Positions 1,690 to 26,118 of a stretch of 27,629 nt of DNA are shown here, piece by piece. Every line of letters begins with the position of its first letter. Positions within the stretch are counted from its first letter, which is position 1. The notes under the pieces are model-generated. The model worked only from the letters and a program-made list of their open reading frames with translations, did not search any database and was not told where the DNA came from. The stretch spans positions 1-27,629 of the forward strand of contig JAFSMW010000106.1 in the NCBI GenBank assembly GCA_017447745.1, written 5' to 3'. The position numbers and the translations under genes are program-made. This stretch comes from Thermoguttaceae bacterium (GTDB lineage: Bacteria > Planctomycetota > Planctomycetia > Pirellulales > Thermoguttaceae).

Positions 1690-4068
1690 ATGGACGAACG
1701 AGAACTATACAACCAACTCAAAGCCGAGATTCGTCATCACGACGAACTGTATTACCTCAAGGCGCAGCCGGAGATATTAGACCACGAGTACGACGCGCTC
1801 ATGCGTCAGCTCAAAGACCTCGAGGCGGCGCACCCGGACTGGGTTACGCCCGACAGTCCAACGCAGGTCGTCGGCGGCGAGTACCCGGAACCGCAAAGCG
1901 ACGCTGCGCTCGCGCCGGAGGTGGAATACAATCTCTTTGGGGAGGTTATCGAACCGGAAAAGCCCAAAGCGACGTCTAAGAAAAAGGCTCAACACGTCGC
2001 GCCGGCGCCCGTTTCGCAATCGGCCAAGCTCAACCGCGTCGTTCACGCCGTTCCGATGCTGTCGATTGACAACACGTATTCCGTCGGCGAGCTGGACGAC
2101 TGGGCGATTCGAACGCAAAAGTATCTTTCTCAGCGAACGTCCAACGATAAAATCGAGTGGGTTGTCGAACCGAAAATCGACGGCGTTTCCGGCGCTCTGA
2201 TCTACAAAAACGGAACGCTGTTACAGATGGTAACTCGCGGCAATGGTCAGGAAGGCGACGACGATTCCGCCAACGCGTGCATGCTGACAAACGTCCCGCA
2301 GACGCTGCAAATCGACTATGCCTCCGCGCCGGAACTCAAGGAGCTGGACTCGATTGAAATTCGCGGCGAAATCTTCATGACAAACGACAATCTGGTTGAG
2401 CTGAACCTGATTCGAGAGAAGGAAGGCGAGCCGCCGTACGCCAACACGCGCAACCTCACTTCCGGTAGCATTTCTCTGGGATACGACGACAAAGGGCAGG
2501 ATATTTTATCCATCGACCCGAATCAGTTTGACAATCAGGCGGACAGAAACAAACTCCTGCGGGATCAGGAAAAAGTTCGGCTGGAACGCTCTCGGCGCAA
2601 GCTGGGATTTTATTGTCACAGCATCGGGCGCACGGACGGATTGCCCGTCAAAACGCACATGGATTTCCTCAATCTCGTTTCGACCTGGGGACTCCAGCCG
2701 ACCCCGATGGCGGCGGTTTTCGACTCCTTCGACAAAGTTAAACAGCATTGCGAAACGATGATTGAAAACCTCGACCAGTTCGACGTCGAAATTGACGGGC
2801 TGGTCATCAAGGTCAACTCGCTGGCGCAGCGGGAAATTCTCGGAACGACGATGAAGTCGCCCCGCTGGGTTATCGCGTACAAGTTCCAAAAGTACGAAGC
2901 GCCCACAACGGTGCTGGGCATTCGCGTTCAGGTCGGGAAAAACGGGACGATTACCCCCGTCGCCGATGTAACGCCGGTGGAAATTGCCGGAACGACGGTC
3001 AGCCGGGCAAGCCTTCACAACTTCGACCAAATTGCAGAAAAAGACATCCGCGTCGGCGACGTCGTCATCATGGAAAAGGCGGGCAAGATTATTCCTCACG
3101 TCGTTCGAGCGGAAAAGCATCTGCGAAAGCCGGACGTTGAACTGAAGCCGTATCAGCCGCCGACGCACTGCCCGGTTTGCGGCTCCCCGCTGGTTAAAGA
3201 TGTCGACGCGGTTTTCCTGCGCTGCGTCAATCCGGATTGTCCCGCTCAGCTCAAGGAAAAAATTCGATTTTACGCCAGCCGAACCGCGATGGACATCACC
3301 GGCTTGGGCGACAAAAACGTCGAAGCGATTGTCGACGCCGGGCTGATTGAAACCTTCGCCGACATCTACCGTCTTAAAGACCGACGGGCTGAACTAATCA
3401 ACGTTTTTTACAAGCCAACGGACAAGGACTTGGAAAAGGCGAAGGCGTCGGGAACGGACTGGGCGCCCAAGTCCACGGCAACGGTCGACAACCTTTTAAC
3501 GGCGATTGAGAACAGCAAATCCCGCCCGCTGTCGCTGCTGATAACCGCGCTGTCGATTCAACACGTCGGAAAAAAGACAGCGACGATTCTCGTTCGGACG
3601 TTCAAAACGGCGGAAAATCTGCTTTCCGCAACCGTAGACGAGCTGTCACAAATCAACGACGTCGGACCGACCATCGCTGCGTCCGTTTGGAACTTTTTCC
3701 ATCTTCCCGACGGCTCCGACGCTCACGGCGCGACGGTTCTCAAGGAACTGCTCGAATTAGGCGTCTCTCAAGTTGAATCCGTTCCGGAAGAAGACAACGA
3801 CAACGCAACTTCGCTGGAAGGACAGACAATCGTTGTAACAGGGACGCTGGAAAAGTTCACGCGTCAGGAGATTGAAGATTTGATCGTCAAGCTCGGCGGT
3901 AAGGCGTCGTCGTCTGTATCCAAAAAGACGGCGTTCGTCGTAGCAGGTAAAGAGGCGGGCAGCAAACTGACCAAGGCCCAGCAACTGGGCGTTCCCGTCC
4001 TGACGGAACAAGAATTTCTGGACAAGATTGGAATGTCGAATGAAGAACAAAATCCACAGCTATTATAA
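1690..4068 (+). CDS. ligA: NAD-dependent DNA ligase LigA
   Basis: KxDG adenylation motif (EPKIDGVS), MLSIDN, and a Cys4 zinc finger (CPVCGSPLV...CVNPDCPAQ). HhH region and C-terminal BRCT-like segment (IVVTGTLEKFTRQEIE...). 792 aa, with two lineage-specific insertions relative to ~670-aa LigA. Confidence 0.95.
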   Translation: MDERELYNQLKAEIRHHDELYYLKAQPEILDHEYDALMRQLKDLEAAHPDWVTPDSPTQVVGGEYPEPQSDAALAPEVEYNLFGEVIEPEKPKATSKKKAQHVAPAPVSQSAKLNRVVHAVPMLSIDNTYSVGELDDWAIRTQKYLSQRTSNDKIEWVVEPKIDGVSGALIYKNGTLLQMVTRGNGQEGDDDSANACMLTNVPQTLQIDYASAPELKELDSIEIRGEIFMTNDNLVELNLIREKEGEPPYANTRNLTSGSISLGYDDKGQDILSIDPNQFDNQADRNKLLRDQEKVRLERSRRKLGFYCHSIGRTDGLPVKTHMDFLNLVSTWGLQPTPMAAVFDSFDKVKQHCETMIENLDQFDVEIDGLVIKVNSLAQREILGTTMKSPRWVIAYKFQKYEAPTTVLGIRVQVGKNGTITPVADVTPVEIAGTTVSRASLHNFDQIAEKDIRVGDVVIMEKAGKIIPHVVRAEKHLRKPDVELKPYQPPTHCPVCGSPLVKDVDAVFLRCVNPDCPAQLKEKIRFYASRTAMDITGLGDKNVEAIVDAGLIETFADIYRLKDRRAELINVFYKPTDKDLEKAKASGTDWAPKSTATVDNLLTAIENSKSRPLSLLITALSIQHVGKKTATILVRTFKTAENLLSATVDELSQINDVGPTIAASVWNFFHLPDGSDAHGATVLKELLELGVSQVESVPEEDNDNATSLEGQTIVVTGTLEKFTRQEIEDLIVKLGGKASSSVSKKTAFVVAGKEAGSKLTKAQQLGVPVLTEQEFLDKIGMSNEEQNPQLL

Positions 4069-4077
4069 CAGTTCTGT

Positions 4078-4641
4078 CTAAAGCGTCTGCGATTTTTCAT
4101 AAACATCGTATAGTTCAAAGAAAACCTCGCGGAGGCTGCCGTTGTGCTTCGTCAAAAGAGCTTCCAGGTTTTCAGGCGGTTCAGAGCCGGTAAGCGTTCG
4201 AACCAGCTTTTGGGCGGTTTCAAGATCAGCGCTCGTTTCCAGCAGCGTCGGCAGCCCAAACGAGACGTGCGACGTCGTCAGCAGCCCAACATGACGCCAT
4301 CGGGTTGACAGGACGATCCACCAACGGCGCCAAAACGGAAGCTGTTCGAAACCGTCGAGAATCAAAATGGAATCGCGCCGCAGCGTTTGCAGATTCTTTA
4401 GTTCACTTTTGTCAAACGAGTGGAGCGTTACAAGATGAACGGCCAGCCCGCGAGCGGCGAGTTCTTTTTGGATTGCAATAACAAACGTAGACTTTCCCGT
4501 CCCGTGCGGTCCGATAACCTGACCCCGTTGACCGTTAGATAAAAAACAATCCGCATAGTACGAAATCGACTTGCCGGGTGCGCACTGATACGCGATCGCT
4601 CCCGGACGGATAAACTTCGTACTAAACGGATTGCTGAACAT
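4078..4641 (-). CDS. Small P-loop NTPase (AAA-like), function unknown
   Basis: Walker A GPHGTGKST and a Walker B-like ILILDGFEQ; 187 aa. The ATG directly follows the 12-bp palindrome GGCGAATTCGCC (4642-4653). Convergent with ligA. Confidence 0.6.
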   Translation of the reverse strand: MFSNPFSTKFIRPGAIAYQCAPGKSISYYADCFLSNGQRGQVIGPHGTGKSTFVIAIQKELAARGLAVHLVTLHSFDKSELKNLQTLRRDSILILDGFEQLPFWRRWWIVLSTRWRHVGLLTTSHVSFGLPTLLETSADLETAQKLVRTLTGSEPPENLEALLTKHNGSLREVFFELYDVYEKSQTL

Positions 4642-4710
4642 GGCGAATTCGCCTGATTAGTTAGAATGATTATTTGGCGTTGGAAAGGATTGGTCTTTTC
4701 TCAACGCTTC

Positions 4711-6684
4711 TCAGAAATCAACGTCGTCATCCTGAATATCGACGTTGTCTCCAATTTCAAAGTTATCATCGTCATTATTGCCTACGTTGTCTTTATTGTC
4801 AGCGGCGTCTTCTTCAACGTCAGCATCGTCTTCAACGTCAGCATCGTCTTCAACGTCAGCGTCGTCTTCAACGTCAGCATCGTCTTCAACGTCAGCGTCG
4901 TCTTCAACGTCAGCATCGTCTTCAACGTCAGCATCGTCTTCAACGTCAGCGTCGTCTTCAACGTCAGCGTCGTCTTCAACGTCAGCGTCGTCTTCAACGT
5001 CTGCGTCGTCTTCAACGTCTGCGTCGTCTTCAGCGTCTGCGTCGTCTTCAGCGTCAGCATCGTCTTCAACGTCAGCATCGTCTTCAACGTCAGCGTCGTC
5101 AATGTCAACGTCCTCGTCAAAATCGTCGTCGAGATCTTCTTCGTTAACAATCAGTTCACCAAATTTCTCTGTAAGCGTTTCAACGAGGTAATCGTTTCGG
5201 AATTCAGTGGAGAACACTTTTCCGTCATTACCGACCAAGACCATACACGGCAGAGCAATAATTCCGTAGTATTCGCTGATGCTAACGCTGTCAACACGAG
5301 CATCCTTTTCCCACATATTAATCCAGGGGAATTTGTGTCTCTTAACGAACTTTGCAACCTGTTTTTTGTTTTGGTCCAAAGCAATGCAAACGATCTCAAA
5401 CCCTTTGGCTTTGTAGGCTGGATAGGCGCGTCTTAAGTATTTGAATTCTTCCATACTGGGCGGAATGGACGGCGACCAGAAGTAGACCAAAACGGTCTTG
5501 TCTTTCAGGTCAGCCATGTTGAACTCTTTGCCGTCAATTGTCTTTCCAGTTAGCGGAAGTTCTTTTCCTTTGAGAGTAAGGCGTTTGGCAGAACCGCGCA
5601 TTGTTTTAACAATTTCCTGAACCTTGGCGTCCTGAATGTTTTCAAAGGCGACAGCGTATTTTTCATAACGTGCGGCAGCGGCGGCGGTATCAAAAACTTC
5701 TTCGGTAAAAGCGGTCTGGAAAGCGATTGCAACCACCTTCAGATTGGCTTTCTCGCCGTAATCGGCAATCATGTCGTCAACAGCTTTAGCGGTTTTATCA
5801 AACTTGGCTTTGTCATTTTGAGCAACCGATTCTGACAGCGCGCTGGCAAGCTTGCCCATGAAGATGTCTTCAACCATATCAGACAAACCGGCTTCTTTGA
5901 TTTCTGCAATAACCGCTTCAAAATCTGCAGAATTGTCAACGCCTTTGAGCTGTCCGAGTCCTTTGATGCAAATCAGCTTAATCAGGTACAGACGCTGAAG
6001 CTTTTCTTTGTTTTCCGCAGGCGTCTTTTGGATGGTTTGACCTGTCTGCTCGATGATTTTTTCAACATCAGAATAATCGTTCGTCTTTTTGGCGTCCTGG
6101 AACGTCAAAGTAATCAATCCCATGACAATATCGTCTGCGAGTTGGGACTGTCCGATTTTTTCGAGCTGACCCGGCATGGAGTACAGTTGAACTTTCGCGT
6201 CTTTATCACCCGCCTTAATAAGAATTTGCAAACTCTTAATTTTTACGGCAACCGCACGCTGAATCTGTTCGACAGTTGCGTCTTTATGTTCAATGACCTT
6301 ATCAGCCGCCGCAACTTGAGCTTTACACAGCTTGGTGTAATGAGCAATCATTTCTTCCCGCGACTGGTCTGCAGGACGTTTGATGAGCATGAGTTTTTCG
6401 ATAAAAGCCAGATATTCTGCCGGCGTTCCGTTTTTTGGGACGGGGTATGCCTCGGAATCAACGCTCTCCTCTTCAAGAGCCTCTTCGACGTTCGCTTCCG
6501 CTTCTGTTTCTTCAGCGGGTGTTGTATCTTCAGCGGGAATCTGAGATTCGGCATCCTCAGTCTGTTCTGCGTTTTCAACAGCAGGCGCAGCGTCGGTCGG
6601 AACGGGAGCGTCGTCTGCAAAGCAGGACGCCATAAACAGGGTCATAGCCAAAAAGGCGGCTATATTCATCAATGTACAACGCAT
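4711..6684 (-). CDS. Secreted/lipoprotein-like protein with a CXXC-less thioredoxin-fold (TlpA/redoxin-like) domain and a poly-acidic (DDADVE)n tail
   Basis: Signal peptide with a lipobox-like MASC. An acidic N-terminal linker is followed by a ~320-aa helical region. The redoxin-like segment reads KTVLVYFWSPSIPPSMEEF...ALPCMVLVGNDGKVF; the WCxxC position is replaced by WSPSIPPS. About 16 DDADVE repeats lead to a terminal DDDVDF. SD AAGGAG lies 8 nt upstream of the ATG. Confidence 0.7.
   Translation of the reverse strand: MRCTLMNIAAFLAMTLFMASCFADDAPVPTDAAPAVENAEQTEDAESQIPAEDTTPAEETEAEANVEEALEEESVDSEAYPVPKNGTPAEYLAFIEKLMLIKRPADQSREEMIAHYTKLCKAQVAAADKVIEHKDATVEQIQRAVAVKIKSLQILIKAGDKDAKVQLYSMPGQLEKIGQSQLADDIVMGLITLTFQDAKKTNDYSDVEKIIEQTGQTIQKTPAENKEKLQRLYLIKLICIKGLGQLKGVDNSADFEAVIAEIKEAGLSDMVEDIFMGKLASALSESVAQNDKAKFDKTAKAVDDMIADYGEKANLKVVAIAFQTAFTEEVFDTAAAAARYEKYAVAFENIQDAKVQEIVKTMRGSAKRLTLKGKELPLTGKTIDGKEFNMADLKDKTVLVYFWSPSIPPSMEEFKYLRRAYPAYKAKGFEIVCIALDQNKKQVAKFVKRHKFPWINMWEKDARVDSVSISEYYGIIALPCMVLVGNDGKVFSTEFRNDYLVETLTEKFGELIVNEEDLDDDFDEDVDIDDADVEDDADVEDDADAEDDADAEDDADVEDDADVEDDADVEDDADVEDDADVEDDADVEDDADVEDDADVEDDADVEDDADVEDDADVEDDADVEEDAADNKDNVGNNDDDNFEIGDNVDIQDDDVDF
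4810..5105 (-). repeat. 18-bp coding minisatellite (gtcagcatcgtcttcaac and variants, ~16 copies) encoding DDADVE repeats
   Basis: Direct reading. Units differ mostly at synonymous positions (gca/gcg, gat/gac), with occasional V->A changes. It also generates the spurious repeat ORFs 4666..5436, 4674..5147, 4745..5191 and 4782..5150. Confidence 0.9.
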
Positions 6685-6797
6685 GGTTCTCTCCTTGTGG
6701 CGATGTGGTGAATAGTTGCGAGTAGCGAGTTGCGAGAGAAATTGTGTAAGGCGTATGCTTTCTCTTGTTTCGTGCTGCTCAATAGCTTCTTTATTAT

Positions 6798-6826
6798 ATA
6801 TTACCAGAAAACACCTAATTTGACAA
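6798..6826 (-). promoter_or_regulatory. Sigma70-like promoter candidate for the 4711..6684 gene (minus-strand -35 TTGTCA, 17-nt spacer, -10 TAATAT)
   Basis: Plus-strand sequence reads atatta(6798-6803)-17 nt-tgacaa(6821-6826). It lies ~115 nt upstream of the ATG at 6684, in an AT-rich patch. Confidence 0.35.
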
Positions 6827-6890
6827 GAGGAATTTTGGCTATTGTCCAGTTTGGGCGTTGCGAAAGATTAGATTTTTTGAGGCGCTTTGA

Positions 6891-6948
6891 CTCATCACTC
6901 CTCACTCCTAATTCCTAACTCAAACCACTCCCTATACTCTATTCCCCT
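6891..6948 (-). repeat. Heptamer array (CCTCACT/CCTAATT/CCTAACT ... TATTCCC on plus strand) overlapping the umuC-like stop codon
   Basis: The minus-sense strand reads TAGGGGAATAGAGTATAGGGAGTGG...GAGTTAGGAATTAGGAGTGAGG. The umuC-like TAG stop is the first TAG of the array. Confidence 0.7.
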
Positions 6949-8206
6949 ATTTTACTATCGGCAGATCGTCCCATTCGGTCGTGTATCGCGGGGACGTGTT
7001 TTGCTGGACAGATTTCCAGGAATCGTCTAAAAGCTGAGTTCCGGTCATGACAGAACTGCGACCGAACTTTTCGTTGAGTCGGTCGAGGGTTTTCATCAGT
7101 CCGGCGCGGCGTTCCAGTTCTTCCGGGTCGTCGAAAAAGGTCAGCTGGGCGCGATTGACAGCGGCGGAGGACAGGTCAATAAGGATGATTCCCGCTTTCT
7201 GATAGGCGTAGTTGGGCTGAAAGATTTTGGCAAGTCCGTCAAGAGCCGCCTGAGTCAGTACAAGCGTATCGCTGGTGGGACGTCCAAGCGGAACGACGGT
7301 TGACGCTGAATATTGCGCCACCGGTCGAAACGGGCTGGTGCGAATATAGACGTCAATAGCGCGGGCGACCTGCCCCTGTTCCCTCAGCTTTTCCGCCGCG
7401 CGGGAAACGAACGTCGAAATTGCGGAAGAAAGCGCGTCGAATTCGTATCGCGGCTTGCCGAACGTGCGTGACGTCTGAATGCTTTTCGCCGTTGGCGGGG
7501 ACTGCTGGTTGCCCAGACAGGATTCCCCGTTGAGTTCCCGAACCATCGCTTCCTGGATGACGGTAAATCGTTTGCGAATTTGAACCGGGTCTTGCTGAGC
7601 GAGGTCAAACGCCGACCGGATTCCCATTCGTTCCAGCTTGACCGACAGCTGACGTCCTACGCCCCAGACTTCTTCCACTGGAAAGCGTTTCAGAACGTCG
7701 ATTCGCTTCGATTCGTCCAGCAGCAGACAGGTTTTTACGCCATCCATTTTCGCCTGGCGGTTGGCGACTTTTGCCAGCGTCCGAGTCGGGGCGATTCCAA
7801 TGGAAATCGGAATGCCCGTCCAGAGCTTGACGCGGTCAACGATAGACTCAGCAAACTCCGTTGTAACGTTTCGCATTCCCGTCAGGTTCAAAAACGCTTC
7901 GTCGATAGAATACTGTTCAATTTCCGGAACCGCAGACGCCAGGGTTTGCATGACCCGCTGGCTCATGTCGCCGTACAGAGCGTAGTTAGAAGAAAAGACG
8001 GCAACGCGATTGGCGCGGCAGAATTCCCGAATCTGGAAAAACGGCGCGCCCATGGCAATTCCAAGCTGTTTCGCTTCCCGACTTCTGGCGACAACGCAGC
8101 CGTCGTTGTTCGACAGGACAATAACAGGGCGTCCGCGCAAAAACGGCTTGAACGCCGTCTCGCACGATGCGTAAAAACTGTTACAGTCAGCCAGAGCAAA
8201 GAGCAT
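6947..8206 (-). CDS. umuC: Y-family DNA polymerase, UmuC-like (error-prone translesion polymerase)
   Basis: The N-terminus MLFALADCNSFYASCETAFKPFLRGRPVIVLSNNDGCVVARSREAKQLGIAMGAPFF is near-canonical UmuC. The track ORF extends to 8383 only by reading through the upstream repeat; the true ATG is at 8204-8206. No umuD/LexA-like gene is adjacent. Confidence 0.8.
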   Translation of the reverse strand: MLFALADCNSFYASCETAFKPFLRGRPVIVLSNNDGCVVARSREAKQLGIAMGAPFFQIREFCRANRVAVFSSNYALYGDMSQRVMQTLASAVPEIEQYSIDEAFLNLTGMRNVTTEFAESIVDRVKLWTGIPISIGIAPTRTLAKVANRQAKMDGVKTCLLLDESKRIDVLKRFPVEEVWGVGRQLSVKLERMGIRSAFDLAQQDPVQIRKRFTVIQEAMVRELNGESCLGNQQSPPTAKSIQTSRTFGKPRYEFDALSSAISTFVSRAAEKLREQGQVARAIDVYIRTSPFRPVAQYSASTVVPLGRPTSDTLVLTQAALDGLAKIFQPNYAYQKAGIILIDLSSAAVNRAQLTFFDDPEELERRAGLMKTLDRLNEKFGRSSVMTGTQLLDDSWKSVQQNTSPRYTTEWDDLPIVK

Positions 8207-8235
8207 GGGGGATGTATGGGAACAGAAGTGGATTT

Positions 8236-8404
8236 GAGTTAGGAATGAGGAGGGAGGAGTGAGGAGTTGGTATAGCGCTTTGCGCCGACAGGGTCGGTTC
8301 CCGAATGGACGTGGGATGCGCCGAAATAGGCTTTTTCGGAGGCATAACCTTGTCCTCTTGCCCGCGCGGCTTCGCGCCCTCACTCCTAATTCCTAACTCC
8401 TAAC
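8236..8404. repeat. MITE-like unit: inverted heptamer arrays (gagttaggaatgaggagggaggagtgaggag ... cctcactcctaattcctaactcctaact) flanking a ~95-bp core with a gcgcg-gctt-cgcgc hairpin
   Basis: The arms at 8236-8269 and 8377-8404 are reverse complements of the same heptamer family. It sits between the metzincin stop (8423) and the umuC-like start (8206). Confidence 0.5.
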
Positions 8405-8422: not shown

Positions 8423-9826
8423 TTAATCCCTAATCTTTATATGAATCCCCTCCGTCTTTCCGTACCGGTCAATGACGTGCATTTCCAAATCGCCTTTGAA
8501 TTCCTCGCAGCCGTCTTTAAGTTCCTCTACAGAGAATCGCATCTGCTTCGGCAGCGGCTGACCGGGTTGAGGCGCAACGTAAAGTTGTCTATCTTCGCCG
8601 GACGCGACGCCGAAAAAGGCGATGCCGTTTTCCGCTTCGAGTTTAACGGACTGATTGTCGTCGATGAGTTCAATTTTGACGTCTCCTTCATCGTTTACCG
8701 GCGGTTCGTCCTGGAAGAACCGGTTGACGTTCAGCGCCGCGGCGGAAATGGGCGACCAGTTGGCGGCTTCGTCGTCAATATTTTCCAGCCAATCGTCGTT
8801 TTCTTTGCTGGGGGCTTCCCGCATGACAAAGAAACGGTTGAGCTGGTCGATTCCTCGCGTCATGATGTCGCGCGGTTCGTTGGAATGGGGCAGATCGAAG
8901 GTGTGTCCCAACTCGTGCAGAGCCGCGCCGATTGTCGTTGCCGCTGCCGCCCAGTAGACGGAACGGTAGGCGGAATCGTCATGGAAATGTTTGCTGTCAA
9001 CGGGGGTGGAGTCCGTAAACGCTTTGACGACGCCGTCGAGCGAGTCCGACCACGTATACATGCAGCTGGAACCGAACATCGCCTGACAGCCGCCACCCAA
9101 AGCAGTGTGACATTTCGTCTCTTTGGTTTTGGGATCAAAGCGCGTATAGGAGGGAATGACGAGGTTGCGTCCGGAATCTTCCGGGAACTGGGGCGTAACT
9201 TCGTCATAAACCATGTCGTACCAGTCTTCATCAGAAACGGAACCGTATTCTTTCGCCGTCTTCTTTCCTTTGAAGACGTGAACAATGACGTCGCCGTTTT
9301 CGTCCAGTTCCAGATTGAACGTCTTTCTGCCCAGACCAGCGTCGTTCATGGATTCCGCCGTAAAACACTGCATCAATTTGAGAGCGGTGTCGAGTTTTCC
9401 TTTGAAATTCTGTGGGTCGTTTTTATACGGCGTTTGAAACGTCGTGTCGCCGGTGGAATCCGTCATGTAAATCATACGGACAACCAGCGGATTGGAGTTC
9501 TTTTTGTAGTTCAGCTTCAGAGTCGTTTTATATTCTCCGCTTGTCAGTTCGAGTTCATTTTCTCCCGGAACGAGTTCAGCAAGAACCTTGAACTTGCCTT
9601 TCCAGGCGTCGCCATGAATCTTTCGAGACGCTTTCTGAGACGATAAATTTGTACAGACAATTTCCGTTGCGGATTCGTCGTACAGACGCCCTCGCAGCAA
9701 CGCGACCGGGTAATCAATTTCCGTCCCGTCGGTAAAATTAACGACTTGAATCGCCTCGTCGGCAAACAGCGCCGACGTCAGTGAAATAAGTAAAGCAAAA
9801 GCAATAGTTGTAATGTAACGAGTCAT
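8423..9826 (-). CDS. Secreted metzincin-type zinc metalloprotease (matrixin-like HEXXHXXGXXHS motif, here HELGHTFDLPHS, plus Met-turn DIMTRG), paralog A
   Basis: Signal peptide MTRYITTIAFALLISLTSALFA. Zinc-binding motif and Met-turn are present. Closely similar along its whole length to the 9933..11330 gene immediately upstream. Confidence 0.7.
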   Translation of the reverse strand: MTRYITTIAFALLISLTSALFADEAIQVVNFTDGTEIDYPVALLRGRLYDESATEIVCTNLSSQKASRKIHGDAWKGKFKVLAELVPGENELELTSGEYKTTLKLNYKKNSNPLVVRMIYMTDSTGDTTFQTPYKNDPQNFKGKLDTALKLMQCFTAESMNDAGLGRKTFNLELDENGDVIVHVFKGKKTAKEYGSVSDEDWYDMVYDEVTPQFPEDSGRNLVIPSYTRFDPKTKETKCHTALGGGCQAMFGSSCMYTWSDSLDGVVKAFTDSTPVDSKHFHDDSAYRSVYWAAAATTIGAALHELGHTFDLPHSNEPRDIMTRGIDQLNRFFVMREAPSKENDDWLENIDDEAANWSPISAAALNVNRFFQDEPPVNDEGDVKIELIDDNQSVKLEAENGIAFFGVASGEDRQLYVAPQPGQPLPKQMRFSVEELKDGCEEFKGDLEMHVIDRYGKTEGIHIKIRD

Positions 9827-9864: not shown

Positions 9865-9944
9865 GAGTTAGGAATTAGGAGTGAGGAGCGATATTCGCCG
9901 AAGGCGAACCACTACTGCCTACTGCCTCTTGCCTATTGCCTAAC
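9865..9944. repeat. Heptamer-array + hairpin element between the two metzincin paralogs (gagttaggaattaggagtgaggag / ttcgccgaaggcgaa / ctactgcctactgcctcttgcctattgcctaac)
   Basis: The central hairpin is a perfect palindrome. The right arm supplies the last three codons and the TAG of paralog B (..VRQ*). Confidence 0.7.
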
Positions 9945-11330
9945 ATGAACGCTTCTCGTCTTTCCGTAACGGTCAATAGCGTGAAGCTCCAAACCGTCTT
10001 TGAAATTTTTGACTTTGTCTTTGAGTTCCTGAACGGAGAATCGCATCTGTTTAGGCAGTTCCTGACCCGGTTGAGGGGCAACGAAAAACTGGCGATGTCC
10101 GTCAGACATGGCGCCGAAATAAGCGATGCCGTTTTCCGCCTCGACCTCAACGGTTTCCCCGTCGTCAACGATCTGCAGCGTAACTCTCCCTTGATTTTCA
10201 GCCGGCGGTTCGTCCTGGAAGAACGGGCAGACGTTCAGCGCCGCGGCGGAAATGAGCGACCAGTTGGCGGCTCGGTCGTCCAGGTTTTCTAACCAATCTC
10301 GATTGAATCTGCTGGGAGCTTCCCGCATGACGAAAAAGCGGTTAAGCTGGTCGATTCCGCGGGTCATGATGTCGCGCGGCTGGTTGGAATGGGGCAGACC
10401 GAAGGTGTGTCCCAACTCGTGCAAAGCCGCGCCAATTGTCGTTGACGCCGCCGCCCAGTAAACGGAACGGAAAGCAGTGTCGTCATGGAAACGCTCTTTA
10501 TCAACGGGCGTGGAATCCGTAAACGCCTTGACAACGCCGTCGAGCGAATCCGGCCACGTGTACATGCAGCCTGACCCGAACAGAGCCAGACTTCCGCCGC
10601 CTAACGCTGTGTGACATTTCGTCCTTTTGGTTTCTGGATCAAAGCGAGTATAGGCGGGAATGACGAGGTTTTTTCCATTGTACCACGGGAAGTCATTTGA
10701 TATTTCCTGATAGACCTTATCGTACCATTCATGATCGGAAAGAGCGGCGTATTCCTCCATCGTCTTCTGTCCTTTGAAGACGTGAACGATTACGTCGCCG
10801 TTGTCGTCCAGTTCCAGATTGAACGTCTTTCGACCCAGCCCAGAGTCGTTCATGGTTTCTGCTGTAAAGCACTGCATCAGCTTTAACGCGGTGTCGAGCT
10901 TGCCCTTGAAATTCTGCGGGTCGTTTTCATACGGCGTTTGGAACGTTGTGTCGCCGGTCGAATCCGTCATGTAAATCATACGGACGACCAACGGGTTGGA
11001 GTTCTTTTTGTAGTTCAGTTTCAGAGTCGTTTTATGATCCCCACTTGTCAGTTCGAGTTCGTTTTCCCCCGGAACGAGTTCCGCAAGAACCTTGAACTGA
11101 CCTTTCCAGGCGTCGCCGTGAATCTGTCGAGACGCTTTCTGAGAAGACAAATTCGTACAGACGATTTCCGTTGCGGATTCGTCAGAAAGACGCCCTCGCA
11201 GCAACGCGACCGGGTAGTCAATTTCCGTTCCGTTGGTAAAGTTAACGACTTGAATCGCCTCGTCGGCATACAGAGCCGACGTCAGCGAGATAAACAATGC
11301 AAAAACGATAGTTGTGATGGTGCGTGTCAT
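9933..11330 (-). CDS. Secreted metzincin-type zinc metalloprotease (HELGHTFGLPHS, Met-turn), paralog B
   Basis: Signal peptide MTRTITTIVFALFISLTSALYA. Canonical HEXXHXXGXXH is present. The preferred start is the second Met (matches paralog A); the track start at 11351 adds MINTLPT. There are 17 bp between it and the upstream oxidoreductase stop. Confidence 0.7.
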   Translation of the reverse strand: MTRTITTIVFALFISLTSALYADEAIQVVNFTNGTEIDYPVALLRGRLSDESATEIVCTNLSSQKASRQIHGDAWKGQFKVLAELVPGENELELTSGDHKTTLKLNYKKNSNPLVVRMIYMTDSTGDTTFQTPYENDPQNFKGKLDTALKLMQCFTAETMNDSGLGRKTFNLELDDNGDVIVHVFKGQKTMEEYAALSDHEWYDKVYQEISNDFPWYNGKNLVIPAYTRFDPETKRTKCHTALGGGSLALFGSGCMYTWPDSLDGVVKAFTDSTPVDKERFHDDTAFRSVYWAAASTTIGAALHELGHTFGLPHSNQPRDIMTRGIDQLNRFFVMREAPSRFNRDWLENLDDRAANWSLISAAALNVCPFFQDEPPAENQGRVTLQIVDDGETVEVEAENGIAYFGAMSDGHRQFFVAPQPGQELPKQMRFSVQELKDKVKNFKDGLELHAIDRYGKTRSVHVRQ

Positions 11331-11347
11331 GGTAGGGAGCGTATTAA

Positions 11348-12829
11348 TCAATCAATTGTCGGAACGATATACGGTGCGCGCTGCGGTCGCGTCAGCAGGG
11401 CGTTGGCTTCCGGCATGCCGTCAATCTGGAATGTTTCGTTGTTGATGGAAATCTTCTTGCCCAGCGTCCAGGCAACGTCTTTGTTGAGGTCAAGCTCCGG
11501 CAGACAGAACTGGACGTTTTCGAGCGTTTCGTCAATCGTCTGCTGCATAATCGGATTGTTCCCGACAGCGTCGCGGCAGGCGTTCAGAGACGCTGTTGAC
11601 CCGGAACGATAAGAGACGTTGCCCAAGTGACAAATTCCGGCGCTGAAATGCCCTTCGGTAATCGGCGCGTTGAGCTTGTCCGGCGTATTGTCGCGAACGC
11701 AGTTGATAAAGTTCTGGAAGATGTCGCCGGGGTTGAGCGCTTCGCAGTCAATATTGATTTGTTCCGTCTTTCCGTTGTTGGAATGGAACGTCGAACCTTG
11801 AATGTACCCATCTTCTGTTACAAACCAGCCAACTTCTCGCGGATTCCATTTGTCGTTGTTGCGATTTCTCAGATTGCAGGACTGGAAAATGAGCGGGATC
11901 CCGTTAAAGTCGCAAATTCCCAGCATGACAGTTGGTGTCTCAGCGGCGTCCTTGTAATTATGCTCTTTGTCGATAACCGTTCGCGTTCCGAAAAAGACGA
12001 CGTTTTGCGGGAATTTGAGATCGGGGAAAAGCTGCGTCAGACCGATTCGGCAGACGTCAAAGTAATGGACGCCGTTGTTGCCGATTTCTCCGTTTCCGAA
12101 ATTCCAGTACCAGTGCCAGTTGTATGGGACGTATCGTTCGCTAAAGGGAACCATCGCCGCCGGACCGACCCACAAGTCCCAATCGATGTTTTGCGGGGCA
12201 GGGGCGTCTGGAAGGAACGGCATGGGATTGCGCGGTCGATTGGCAAACGCCTTAACGGCAATCGGTTTCCCGAACATTCCCTTTGCCCAGGCGACTGCGC
12301 CTTTTTTTGTTCCGAAGTCGCACCGTCGCTGCGTTCCGTGCTGAATGCAGACGTTGTACTTTCTCATCGCCGCCGCCAACTGACAGCCCTCAAAGAGATT
12401 TTGGGAACAGGGCTTTTCGACGTAGACGTGCTTTCCCGCCTGCGCCGCCCAAATTCCCAAAAGCGAATGCCAATGGTTGCAGGACGCAATCGAAACAAAA
12501 TCGACGTCCTTGTCGTCAAAAAGCTGACGGGCGTCCTGAACGGCTTTGCAGTCGTTTCCCTTTTTATCTTTGATCCATTTAGCAGCGCTGTTGGCGCGAT
12601 TCAAATCAGCGTCCGCCGTTCCGACGATTTCCACGCCGTTGATGCCGGAAAACGCCTGAACGTGATGATTTCCTCGACTGCCAACGCCCAACACGGCGCC
12701 GCGAAGGCGGTCGTTCGCTCCAAACGCCTTGGACGAAATAAACAAAGGACAAACCGCCGCGCCGGAAATGACGACGCTGGCTTTAACGAAATCTCGTCTT
12801 GAAATCTTTCTTTTGAAAGTCATGATCAT
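11348..12829 (-). CDS. Gfo/Idh/MocA-family NAD(P)-dependent oxidoreductase with twin-arginine (Tat) signal
   Basis: RRDFVKASVVISGAA Tat motif. Rossmann-type VLGVGSRGNHHVQAF...VEIVG and EKPCSQ family motif. 493 aa. Confidence 0.8.
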   Translation of the reverse strand: MIMTFKRKISRRDFVKASVVISGAAVCPLFISSKAFGANDRLRGAVLGVGSRGNHHVQAFSGINGVEIVGTADADLNRANSAAKWIKDKKGNDCKAVQDARQLFDDKDVDFVSIASCNHWHSLLGIWAAQAGKHVYVEKPCSQNLFEGCQLAAAMRKYNVCIQHGTQRRCDFGTKKGAVAWAKGMFGKPIAVKAFANRPRNPMPFLPDAPAPQNIDWDLWVGPAAMVPFSERYVPYNWHWYWNFGNGEIGNNGVHYFDVCRIGLTQLFPDLKFPQNVVFFGTRTVIDKEHNYKDAAETPTVMLGICDFNGIPLIFQSCNLRNRNNDKWNPREVGWFVTEDGYIQGSTFHSNNGKTEQINIDCEALNPGDIFQNFINCVRDNTPDKLNAPITEGHFSAGICHLGNVSYRSGSTASLNACRDAVGNNPIMQQTIDETLENVQFCLPELDLNKDVAWTLGKKISINNETFQIDGMPEANALLTRPQRAPYIVPTID

Positions 12830-17765: not shown

Positions 17766-17796
17766 CTACTGCCTATTGCCTACTGCCTATTGTCTA
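17766..17796 (-). repeat. Heptamer array (ctactgcctattgcctactgcctattgtcta) filling the GH5/beta-helix intergenic gap and supplying the ...NRQ-TAG end of the beta-helix gene
   Basis: Direct reading. The stop codon at 17780-17782 lies inside the array. Confidence 0.7.
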
Positions 17797-23774: not shown

Positions 23775-23781
23775 AGATGCA

Positions 23782-23980
23782 GGGAATAGGGAGTAGGGAA
23801 TGGGGAGTAGGGAATAGGGAATAGGGAATAGGGAGTGGCAAGTGGATTGGAAGGCGGTAATGGAGCGACCAACGGGAGCGGAATTACGCATTCGCCGTCA
23901 GGCGAACGGAGGCATTAGGCGATAGGCAATAGGAAAGAGTGTAAAATTTCTACTGCCTACTGCCTCTTGCCTACTGCCTC
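23782..23980. repeat. Large composite element between the radical-SAM gene and the metallopeptidase gene: (GGGAATA/GGGAGTA)x8, hairpin ttcgccgtcaggcgaa (23891-23906), TAGGCGA/TAGGCAA/TAGGAAA array, then ctactgcctactgcctcttgcctactgcc
   Basis: Direct reading. The last arm encodes the final EAVGKRQ and the TAG of the radical-SAM protein on the minus strand. Confidence 0.8.
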
Positions 23981-26057: not shown

Positions 26058-26118
26058 AGGGAATAGAGCTTCGCATTCGGCGAATTTAAATACTATTCCC
26101 TACTCCCTATTCCCTACT
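26058..26118. repeat. Heptamer-array + hairpin element immediately upstream of the 26122 start codon (tatagggaatagag / cttcgcattcggcgaa / tattccctactccctattccctacta)
   Basis: Direct reading. Same family as the elements at gene 3' ends. Confidence 0.7.

Follow-up and report, generated by a model that had tools for sequence, protein, structure and literature searches.

A putatively secreted TlpA-like protein without catalytic cysteines and with a repeat-encoded polyacidic tail in rumen Thermoguttaceae

The thioredoxin domains of calsequestrin have been described as metazoan paralogues of the thioredoxin domains of the endoplasmic reticulum (PMC7016017). Among bacteria, acidic proteins can act as Ca2+ buffers and give calsequestrin-like results when assayed with Stains-all and 45Ca (PMC4322793), and CnoX/YbbN, with SQHC in E. 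coli, is a holdase composed of a thioredoxin part and a TPR part (PMC10998233, PMC6282202). Literature searches found no description of a bacterial TlpA that lacks the catalytic cysteines and carries an acidic tail, no bacterial calsequestrin-like thioredoxin protein, and no paper on the family described here. Such a protein is encoded in a 27,629-nt contig stretch, called the window throughout, from a Thermoguttaceae bacterium, a rumen planctomycete. Its coding sequence, at 4711..6684 on the minus strand, specifies 657 aa plus a stop in the list of open reading frames (ORFs) and is backed by synteny and by homologues with 52-87% identity across the full body. The product is a predicted secreted protein in which a TlpA-like thioredoxin domain without catalytic cysteines is followed by a polyacidic tail. 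The core observation of the first-pass annotation was real, with the ORF, the repeat array and the cysteine-less thioredoxin domain all confirmed.

The protein begins with a putative signal peptide at residues 1-24, MRCTLMNIAAFLAMTLFMASCFA/DD (6613..6684, minus strand, as for all features of the gene), called from the sequence and from a helix at residues 2-22 that AlphaFold2 predicts with a low predicted local distance difference test (pLDDT) score. A disordered acidic linker rich in P, A, E and T follows at residues 25-79 (6448..6612), with pLDDT <50 and a counted net charge of -20. AlphaFold2 then gives a TPR-like alpha-solenoid of 13 helices at residues 80-372 (5569..6447), and together with Pfam it defines a TlpA/ResA-type thioredoxin-fold domain without catalytic cysteines at residues 373-512 (5149..5568). 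The remainder, residues 513-657 (4714..5148), is a polyacidic and intrinsically disordered tail, assigned from its composition, its pLDDT <50 and the lack of any Pfam family. In the AlphaFold2 model, built on a 28-sequence alignment, residues 80-515 reach pLDDT >85, with thirteen helices spanning 88-369 and the thioredoxin fold at 375-510, and pLDDT falls below 50 at residues 23-77 and 524-657. The folded body is nearly neutral (charge +1) and stands between the linker (-20) and the tail (-87); the thioredoxin domain itself is slightly basic, with an isoelectric point of 8.5.

Three Pfam families, Thioredoxin_8, AhpC-TSA and Redoxin, score over their gathering thresholds on residues ~379-494, each with one matched stretch. 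In the family alignment (A1), the degenerate active-site motif FWSPSIPPS (residues 402-410; 5455..5481) is aligned with FWATWCGPC of distant relatives, so that I407 stands at the position of the nucleophilic cysteine and S410 at that of the resolving cysteine. The replacement of WCxxC by WSPSIPPS, as first proposed, is therefore borne out at both cysteine positions, and the structure prediction agrees with the proposal in giving a single thioredoxin domain, at residues 373-512, that lacks CXXC. The cysteines that remain are at 3, 21, 120, 239, 433 and 480, with no CXXC anywhere in the protein, and P479 (in ALPC) occupies the conserved cis-Pro position, aligned with IP of relatives in the sequence alignment. 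Because the catalytic CXXC is gone, this TlpA homologue would, judging from its sequence, be incapable of dithiol-disulfide exchange. Relatives carry the NCBI name "TlpA family protein disulfide reductase". Since both cysteines are lost and the NCBIfam equivalog cut-offs are missed by far (ResA, 64.8 vs 170 bits; TlpA, 27.7 vs 230; DsbE, 17.6 vs 123; StoA, 33 vs 210), "reductase" is very probably a functional misannotation.

The tail contains 67 D, 21 E and 1 K in its 145 aa. The highest D+E fraction over any 40 aa is 0.70, compared with <=0.33 in the other 16 large ORFs of the window, and searches of the tail against PDB and Pfam returned nothing meaningful. Most of the tail is encoded by a minisatellite. 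Tandem Repeats Finder (TRF) places 16.4 copies of an 18-bp unit at 4805-5100, with 95% matches, and codon parsing resolves 16 exact units of 18 bp at 4813-5100 (residues 529-624), 14 encoding DDADVE and 2 encoding DDADAE. The earlier count of about 16 tandem 18-bp units, placed at 4810-5105, agrees with these 16 exact-length units; the roughly 110 residues of perfect acidic repeat also described are real as acidic repeats but come to 96 residues only. The units differ at three nucleotide columns only, two of them synonymous third positions (C/T in 9/7 units and T/A in 13/3 units) and one non-synonymous (V/A, with Ala in 2 units). ORFs on the opposite strand over the repeat (4666-5436, 4745-5191 and others) were rejected as by-products of a stop-free repeat, without homology support.

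With residues 1-518 as the query, 18 close relatives were retrieved that align over the full length at 52-87% identity, along with about 19 more distant relatives. The close relatives come from metagenome-assembled genomes (MAGs) of Thermoguttaceae (Planctomycetota) from ruminant guts, for example buffalo omasum RGIG7588 and RUG11551. Some 25 relatives have both the cysteine-less motif and the acidic tail, and where the source is known they are rumen or gut Thermoguttaceae. Their motif is WSP[SGT][VI]xP[SC] or PWS[SP]SD...; the first motif cysteine is absent throughout the clade and the second is kept in some members. Clade tails measure 33-234 residues with 37-70% D+E and 0-5 K/R, and every complete family member ends in an acidic tail that is in frame, as the first-pass annotation would have it. 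The TPR-like helical domain (residues 80-372) is confined to a small planctomycete family: a HMMER scan with it against 1.84 billion representative proteins gave 74 clusters only. Nearly all complete cluster members are ~400 aa long, keep WC[GAKM]PC and end in short K/E/P/A-rich tails of mixed charge, D+E making up 7-23% of the last 60 residues in the CXXC-type members. Within those 74 clusters the cysteine-less and polyacidic combination occurs in the rumen clade only.

The members can be arranged in a graded series. P0038 has the long helical domain and WCGPC, without an acidic tail; P0016 has AASVRPC and a Glu-rich tail of 33 aa; P0010 and P0011 have SPSVRPC and tails of 62-80 aa; the window protein (SPSIPPS, 145 aa) and its closest relatives have tails of 75-146 aa; and in P0012, P0013 and P0014 the tails reach 174-234 aa. 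A distant lineage, P0033, also combines a cysteine-less motif, FWTAQSVSS, with an acidic tail, rich in P, E, A and T; it may be a second lineage that shares this design as a whole, or else a deeply diverging branch of the first. P0029-P0031 are TlpA-like proteins that lack the cysteines and have no acidic tail, so the association between cysteine loss and acidic tail is strong within the family but not universal. Regarding individual entries, P0033 (626 aa, from an ENA metagenome) is 24% identical over 73% of the query, has the long helical domain and bears a canonical lipobox, LISC. P0119 and P0120 (MBR5161845.1 and MBR5161844.1), on one 4186-bp contig, are an orthologue annotated as 233 aa plus 388 aa; the break falls inside the helical domain and could reflect a frameshift, a pseudogene or a sequencing error.

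Nei-Gojobori estimates of the ratio of non-synonymous to synonymous substitution rates (dN/dS) against six orthologues lie at 0.08-0.14 in the folded body, at 0.09-0.17 when the thioredoxin domain is taken alone, and at 0.05-0.16 in neighbouring genes. With dN/dS near 0.1 the cysteine-less domain is maintained by purifying selection and is not decaying. The N-terminal linker, which is variable in length and partly missing in relatives (alignment A1), has dN/dS of 0.17-0.32, above that of the folded body. In the closest MAGs the dS of the body exceeds that of the neighbours (0.53-0.83 vs 0.24-0.46). A dip in GC content was also seen at 4001-7000 (46-49% vs ~55% on either side), and two genes there have raised dS.

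The tail is conserved in another way. Its repeat units vary among relatives (DDADVE, EEPADV, EEDVNADEDVDV, DDLDVD, DDTAD, DDNAA, DDIDx and DDGGY) while D+E stays at 37-70%, which suggests that selection acts on the composition and charge of the tail rather than on its sequence. The initial argument, that the synonymous differences among units reveal selection for the peptide, is correct in that the variation is mostly synonymous; it is weak because a minimum of three mutations (2 synonymous and 1 non-synonymous), copied by unit duplication, would explain the three variable columns, and it is the acidity that is conserved instead.

Turnover of the repeat was followed by TRF on orthologues. Units of 18 bp were found in the window, L001 and L002, of 36 bp in L003 and L004, and of 15 bp in L005 (20.4 copies), L008 (12.1) and L009 (25.1); L006 had no tandem array. 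Within the 15-bp clade the bodies are 98.9-99.8% identical and the tails range over 138-206 aa. One 90% cluster holds five proteins with 0 mismatches over 471 body residues, and these alleles carry 20, 21, 22, 23 and 24 pentapeptide units, corresponding to 646, 651, 656, 661 and 666 aa. Furthermore, two 646-aa alleles partition their units differently between DDTDA and DDTAD sub-arrays. As all units are multiples of three, slippage alters length and not frame. The exact window protein was not found in a collection of 15 billion proteins, where the closest bodies are 86-89% identical. The hypervariable repeat number that had been predicted is therefore upheld for sister clades, by copy ladders among their near-identical alleles, and not for the DDADVE array itself.

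To account for these observations, it is proposed that the gene encodes a Sec-exported protein that would descend from a planctomycete-specific periplasmic TlpA-like thiol:disulfide reductase, an ancestor that would already have borne the N-terminal TPR-like helical domain. The TPR-like and thioredoxin-like body would now be a pseudoenzyme that serves as a scaffold for binding. The tail would be a polyelectrolyte under selection for charge and would act by electrostatic forces, either within the periplasm or on the surface of the cell, binding divalent cations with low affinity and high capacity, and/or binding or repelling charged partners, its length being tuned by slippage. With middling confidence, we favour this explanation, in which a scaffold for binding, devoid of redox activity, carries a polyanionic tail of variable length that works through its charge.

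Export is suggested by inspection of the N-terminus, where MRCTLMNIAAFLAMTLFMASCFA/DD looks like a signal peptide. The first-pass annotation called the protein lipobox-bearing, and this is doubtful. With the lipobox taken as [LVI][ASTVI][GAS]C, M-A-S-C (in LFMASC) is a loose match with Met at -3. P0016, with Ala (AVPAFA/DG), is the one listed member that lacks the cysteine at position 21, and the signal peptides of two secreted metallopeptidases of the window end in ...SALFA/DEA and ...SALYA/DEA. Because of the Ala in P0016 and of this pattern in the neighbours, cleavage by signal peptidase I after CFA seems at least equally plausible as lipidation of C21.

Several points weigh against the favoured explanation. 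Cation binding, localisation and partner binding all rest on what we infer from sequence. The body is less conserved than its neighbours (82-86% vs 92-97% aa identity), and this faster evolution fits a surface or interaction role without identifying one. The disorder call by AlphaFold2 was made on a tail whose multiple alignment is shallow and poorly alignable. All members come from metagenome assemblies, and individual copy numbers, including 16, may be mis-assembled because near-perfect arrays of 290-380 bp exceed typical short reads. Lastly, the explanation does not account for the conserved C-terminal ...DDF/Y. The window protein ends in DDDVDF (4714..4731; tail ends in alignment A1), and family tails mostly end in an aromatic F or Y (...DDDVDF, ...GGDDF, ...GGYDDF, ...DEEY). 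Acidic tails with a terminal Phe that docks on partners, such as the C-terminus of the single-stranded DNA-binding protein SSB, look alike; AlphaFold2 showed no docking of the C-terminal end, where pLDDT is 30-37. The coupling of cysteine loss with tail gain and the allele ladder are solid; what the protein does is a matter of inference. The clade has few members, all of them uncultured.

Foremost among the alternatives is a calsequestrin-like high-capacity store or buffer for Ca2+ (or Mg2+) in the periplasm or at the surface, in which the tail, and perhaps the body too, would condense Ca2+ and which by analogy might serve cation homeostasis or mineral binding; we consider it doubtful. A calsequestrin-like architecture had been proposed at the outset, and it holds for the thioredoxin fold without CXXC and for the acidic tail. 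The 88 acidic tail residues, mostly Asp, with a net charge of -87, the acidity kept across the clade and the precedent of acidic bacterial proteins in Stains-all and 45Ca assays (PMC4322793) point the same way. However, the protein has one thioredoxin domain only, of TlpA type and joined to a TPR-like domain, the folded body is near neutral, and no cation transporter or Ca-related gene adjoins. In addition, polyanions bind counter-ions whatever their biological role: a -87 polyanion would condense Ca2+ and Mg2+ in any case, so binding alone is no proof of storage. Homology to calsequestrin was rejected, as there was no Pfam match to it and it appeared neither among the PDB sequence matches nor among the top 50-60 fold matches. 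An evolutionary form of this idea, likewise rather unlikely in our estimate, is that rumen Thermoguttaceae remodelled a periplasmic disulfide reductase until, by convergence on the style of calsequestrin, it became a polyanionic buffer for cations or a fixed-charge protein in the enlarged periplasm of planctomycetes, cysteine loss and growth of the Asp-rich tail being functionally coupled and slippage tuning ion-binding capacity between strains.

A second alternative is an envelope holdase or adaptor resembling the chaperedoxin CnoX/YbbN, in which the TPR-like and thioredoxin-like domains would hold client proteins, either unfolded or specific ones, with the acidic arms acting as solubilising, anti-aggregation entropic bristles. 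This analogy draws on the joining of a TPR-like solenoid to a cysteine-less thioredoxin fold, both under purifying selection, on the two disordered acidic arms around a neutral body, and on CnoX/YbbN as a documented thioredoxin-plus-TPR holdase (PMC10998233, PMC6282202). It is nevertheless unlikely to apply: the domain order is reversed, the thioredoxin subtype is TlpA-like, the protein is predicted to be exported and not cytoplasmic, no sequence relationship to CnoX was detected, and the length and variability of the tail are left unexplained.

It is less probable still that the tail is a surface-exposed, variable polyanion under diversifying pressure, with slippage of the repeat as the source of rapid variation. 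As a decoy or sink it would draw off cationic antimicrobial peptides, lysozyme or the receptor-binding proteins of phages; as an adhesin it would attach to surfaces that are cationic or mineral. Copy-number ladders among alleles with identical bodies, repeated replacement of lineage-specific repeat units, and a body that evolves faster than the neighbouring genes would all agree with such pressure. Nonetheless, the body's dN/dS of ~0.1 gives, at the resolution reached here, no hint of positive selection, surface exposure is only assumed, and units that are multiples of 3 provide length variation and no on/off switch.

That the protein is still a redox enzyme by way of other cysteines, namely C433, C480 (the one beside the cis-Pro), or the single retained cysteine (...PPC) of relatives, is very improbable. 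The second motif cysteine is indeed kept in some relatives (WSPGVPPC, WSPSVRPC), and many have a cysteine directly after the cis-Pro (ALPC). Yet the window protein has neither motif cysteine, Ile/Val or Asp stands in place of the first one in those members that were examined, and C480 becomes Tyr or Arg in sub-clades; moreover, the strands of C433 and C480 presumably flank the active-site strand of the thioredoxin fold and are not adjacent. A left-handed beta-helix tail, suggested by the fit of VEDDAD to the hexapeptide consensus [LIV]-[GAED]-X2-[STAV]-X, by a period of 6 with Val at a fixed position and by weak NCBIfam matches to LpxD (E 7.5e-4) and LpxA (6.6e-3) on residues 553-651, is hardly credible and was rejected, given 13-19 bits against cut-offs of 207-231, AlphaFold2 disorder (no strands, pLDDT <50), no Pfam Hexapep match, and relatives with a non-conserved period (5 or 12) and units without an aliphatic residue (DDTAD, DDNAA).

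The genes around the TlpA-like gene gave no functional clue, comprising a UmuC-like polymerase, a DNA ligase, two metallopeptidases and a GFO oxidoreductase, all of them unrelated housekeeping or secreted genes, and a promoter and terminator scan of 3900-7100 returned counts at chance level. The order UmuC-like polymerase, TlpA-like gene, 187-aa P-loop gene is conserved in L001-L006. The last of these, a recurrent neighbour (minimal AAA+-like; 4078..4641, minus strand), begins 69 nt past the TlpA-like stop. Its product has the motifs GPHGTGKST and a Walker-B-like ILILDG, with sub-threshold IstB, Hda and AAA matches only and no family assignment. It also lies directly downstream in the P0016 locus (47% identity), where the other neighbours are all different, and is not adjacent at the P0013 locus nor beside CXXC-type relatives. 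From this gene order it is a possible operon partner of the TlpA-like gene. Like that gene, it has lower GC and higher dS.

Further features of the window were recorded. At 6947-8383 (minus strand), the UmuC-like Y-family polymerase ORF (IMS, IMS_C, DUF4113) is listed with a GTG start and an Arg-rich extension of ~59 residues, within which lies a heptamer array; orthologue matches begin at residue 48-60 or later in 4 of 5 loci, and translation probably starts at M60, near 8206. Tandem paralogues at 8423-9826 and 9933-11351 (both minus strand) encode secreted PF12044 'putative peptidases' (Metallopep plus a matrixin-like motif), each of which matches the other's orthologue in relatives at ~78-81% identity; L002, L003 and L005 have kept both copies. 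Short heptamer tandem arrays (TAGGCAG, TAGGCAA, AGGGAAT and AGGAGTG types) occupy many intergenic spacers, often paired in inverted orientation, at 456-484, 1624-1643/1654-1681, 6714-6736, 6888-6918, 8241-8267/8378-8405, 9865-9888/9912-9942, 15976-16006/16113-16146, 17766-17792, 23781-23834, 23910-23933/23947-23979 and 26093-26116; the array at 456-484 is in frame within the arginyl-tRNA synthetase ORF. The sequence CTACTGCCT occurs 20 times against 0.02 expected, and strong hairpin folding was found in two of three spacers tested (z -5.3 and -6.7; third, z -2.4). These arrays recall the cyanobacterial short tandemly repeated repetitive (STRR) heptamer repeats and may represent either terminators or a family of repeats spread over the genome.

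The loss of CXXC together with the gain of a polyanionic tail in one small clade offers a clean natural case of an enzyme becoming a pseudoenzyme, the fold being kept under purifying selection while the tail is rapidly remodelled. Should the tail turn out to buffer cations or to provide fixed charge in the periplasm, bacteria would have converged on the design of calsequestrin, and the envelope physiology of gut planctomycetes would have a new element. In rumen metagenomes, strains might also be told apart by the copy-number ladder.

Compared with known systems, the window protein has the thioredoxin fold of the TlpA/ResA type and differs from TlpA, ResA and DsbE (CcmG) by the loss of both cysteines, a 290-aa TPR-like domain and the 145-aa polyacidic tail. 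Planctomycete TlpA-like proteins (such as P0019-P0028, P0038 and P0042-P0108) share its helical and thioredoxin domains at 25-41% identity, as well as the putative signal peptide and overall domain order, but they keep WCGPC and have short, K/E/P/A-rich tails of mixed charge, and most are without the ~115-residue insertion in the helical domain, P0038 having the long form. With calsequestrin it has in common a thioredoxin fold without CXXC and an Asp-rich disordered C-terminal tail; calsequestrin, however, has three thioredoxin domains and polymerises with Ca2+, in contrast to one TlpA-type domain plus a TPR-like domain here. The body of calsequestrin is acidic at its surface, and the body of the window protein is near neutral. 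Because the thioredoxin domains of calsequestrin are metazoan paralogues of those of the endoplasmic reticulum (PMC7016017), any likeness is convergent and to be taken as analogy only. CnoX/YbbN, to which no homology was detected, resembles the window protein in combining a degenerate thioredoxin fold with TPR-type repeats and is a precedent for non-redox client binding; it differs in being cytoplasmic, in placing thioredoxin N-terminal to the TPR part, in belonging to another thioredoxin subfamily and in lacking a polyacidic tail. It is the nearest bacterial precedent for a degenerate thioredoxin plus TPR in a non-redox role. Finally, as in bacterial surface and secreted proteins with variable numbers of tandem repeats, the units are in frame and their copy number varies among near-identical alleles, but in the present case the lineages have replaced one unit by another and kept the net charge, and a near-pure polyanion is carried on what would be a pseudoenzyme.

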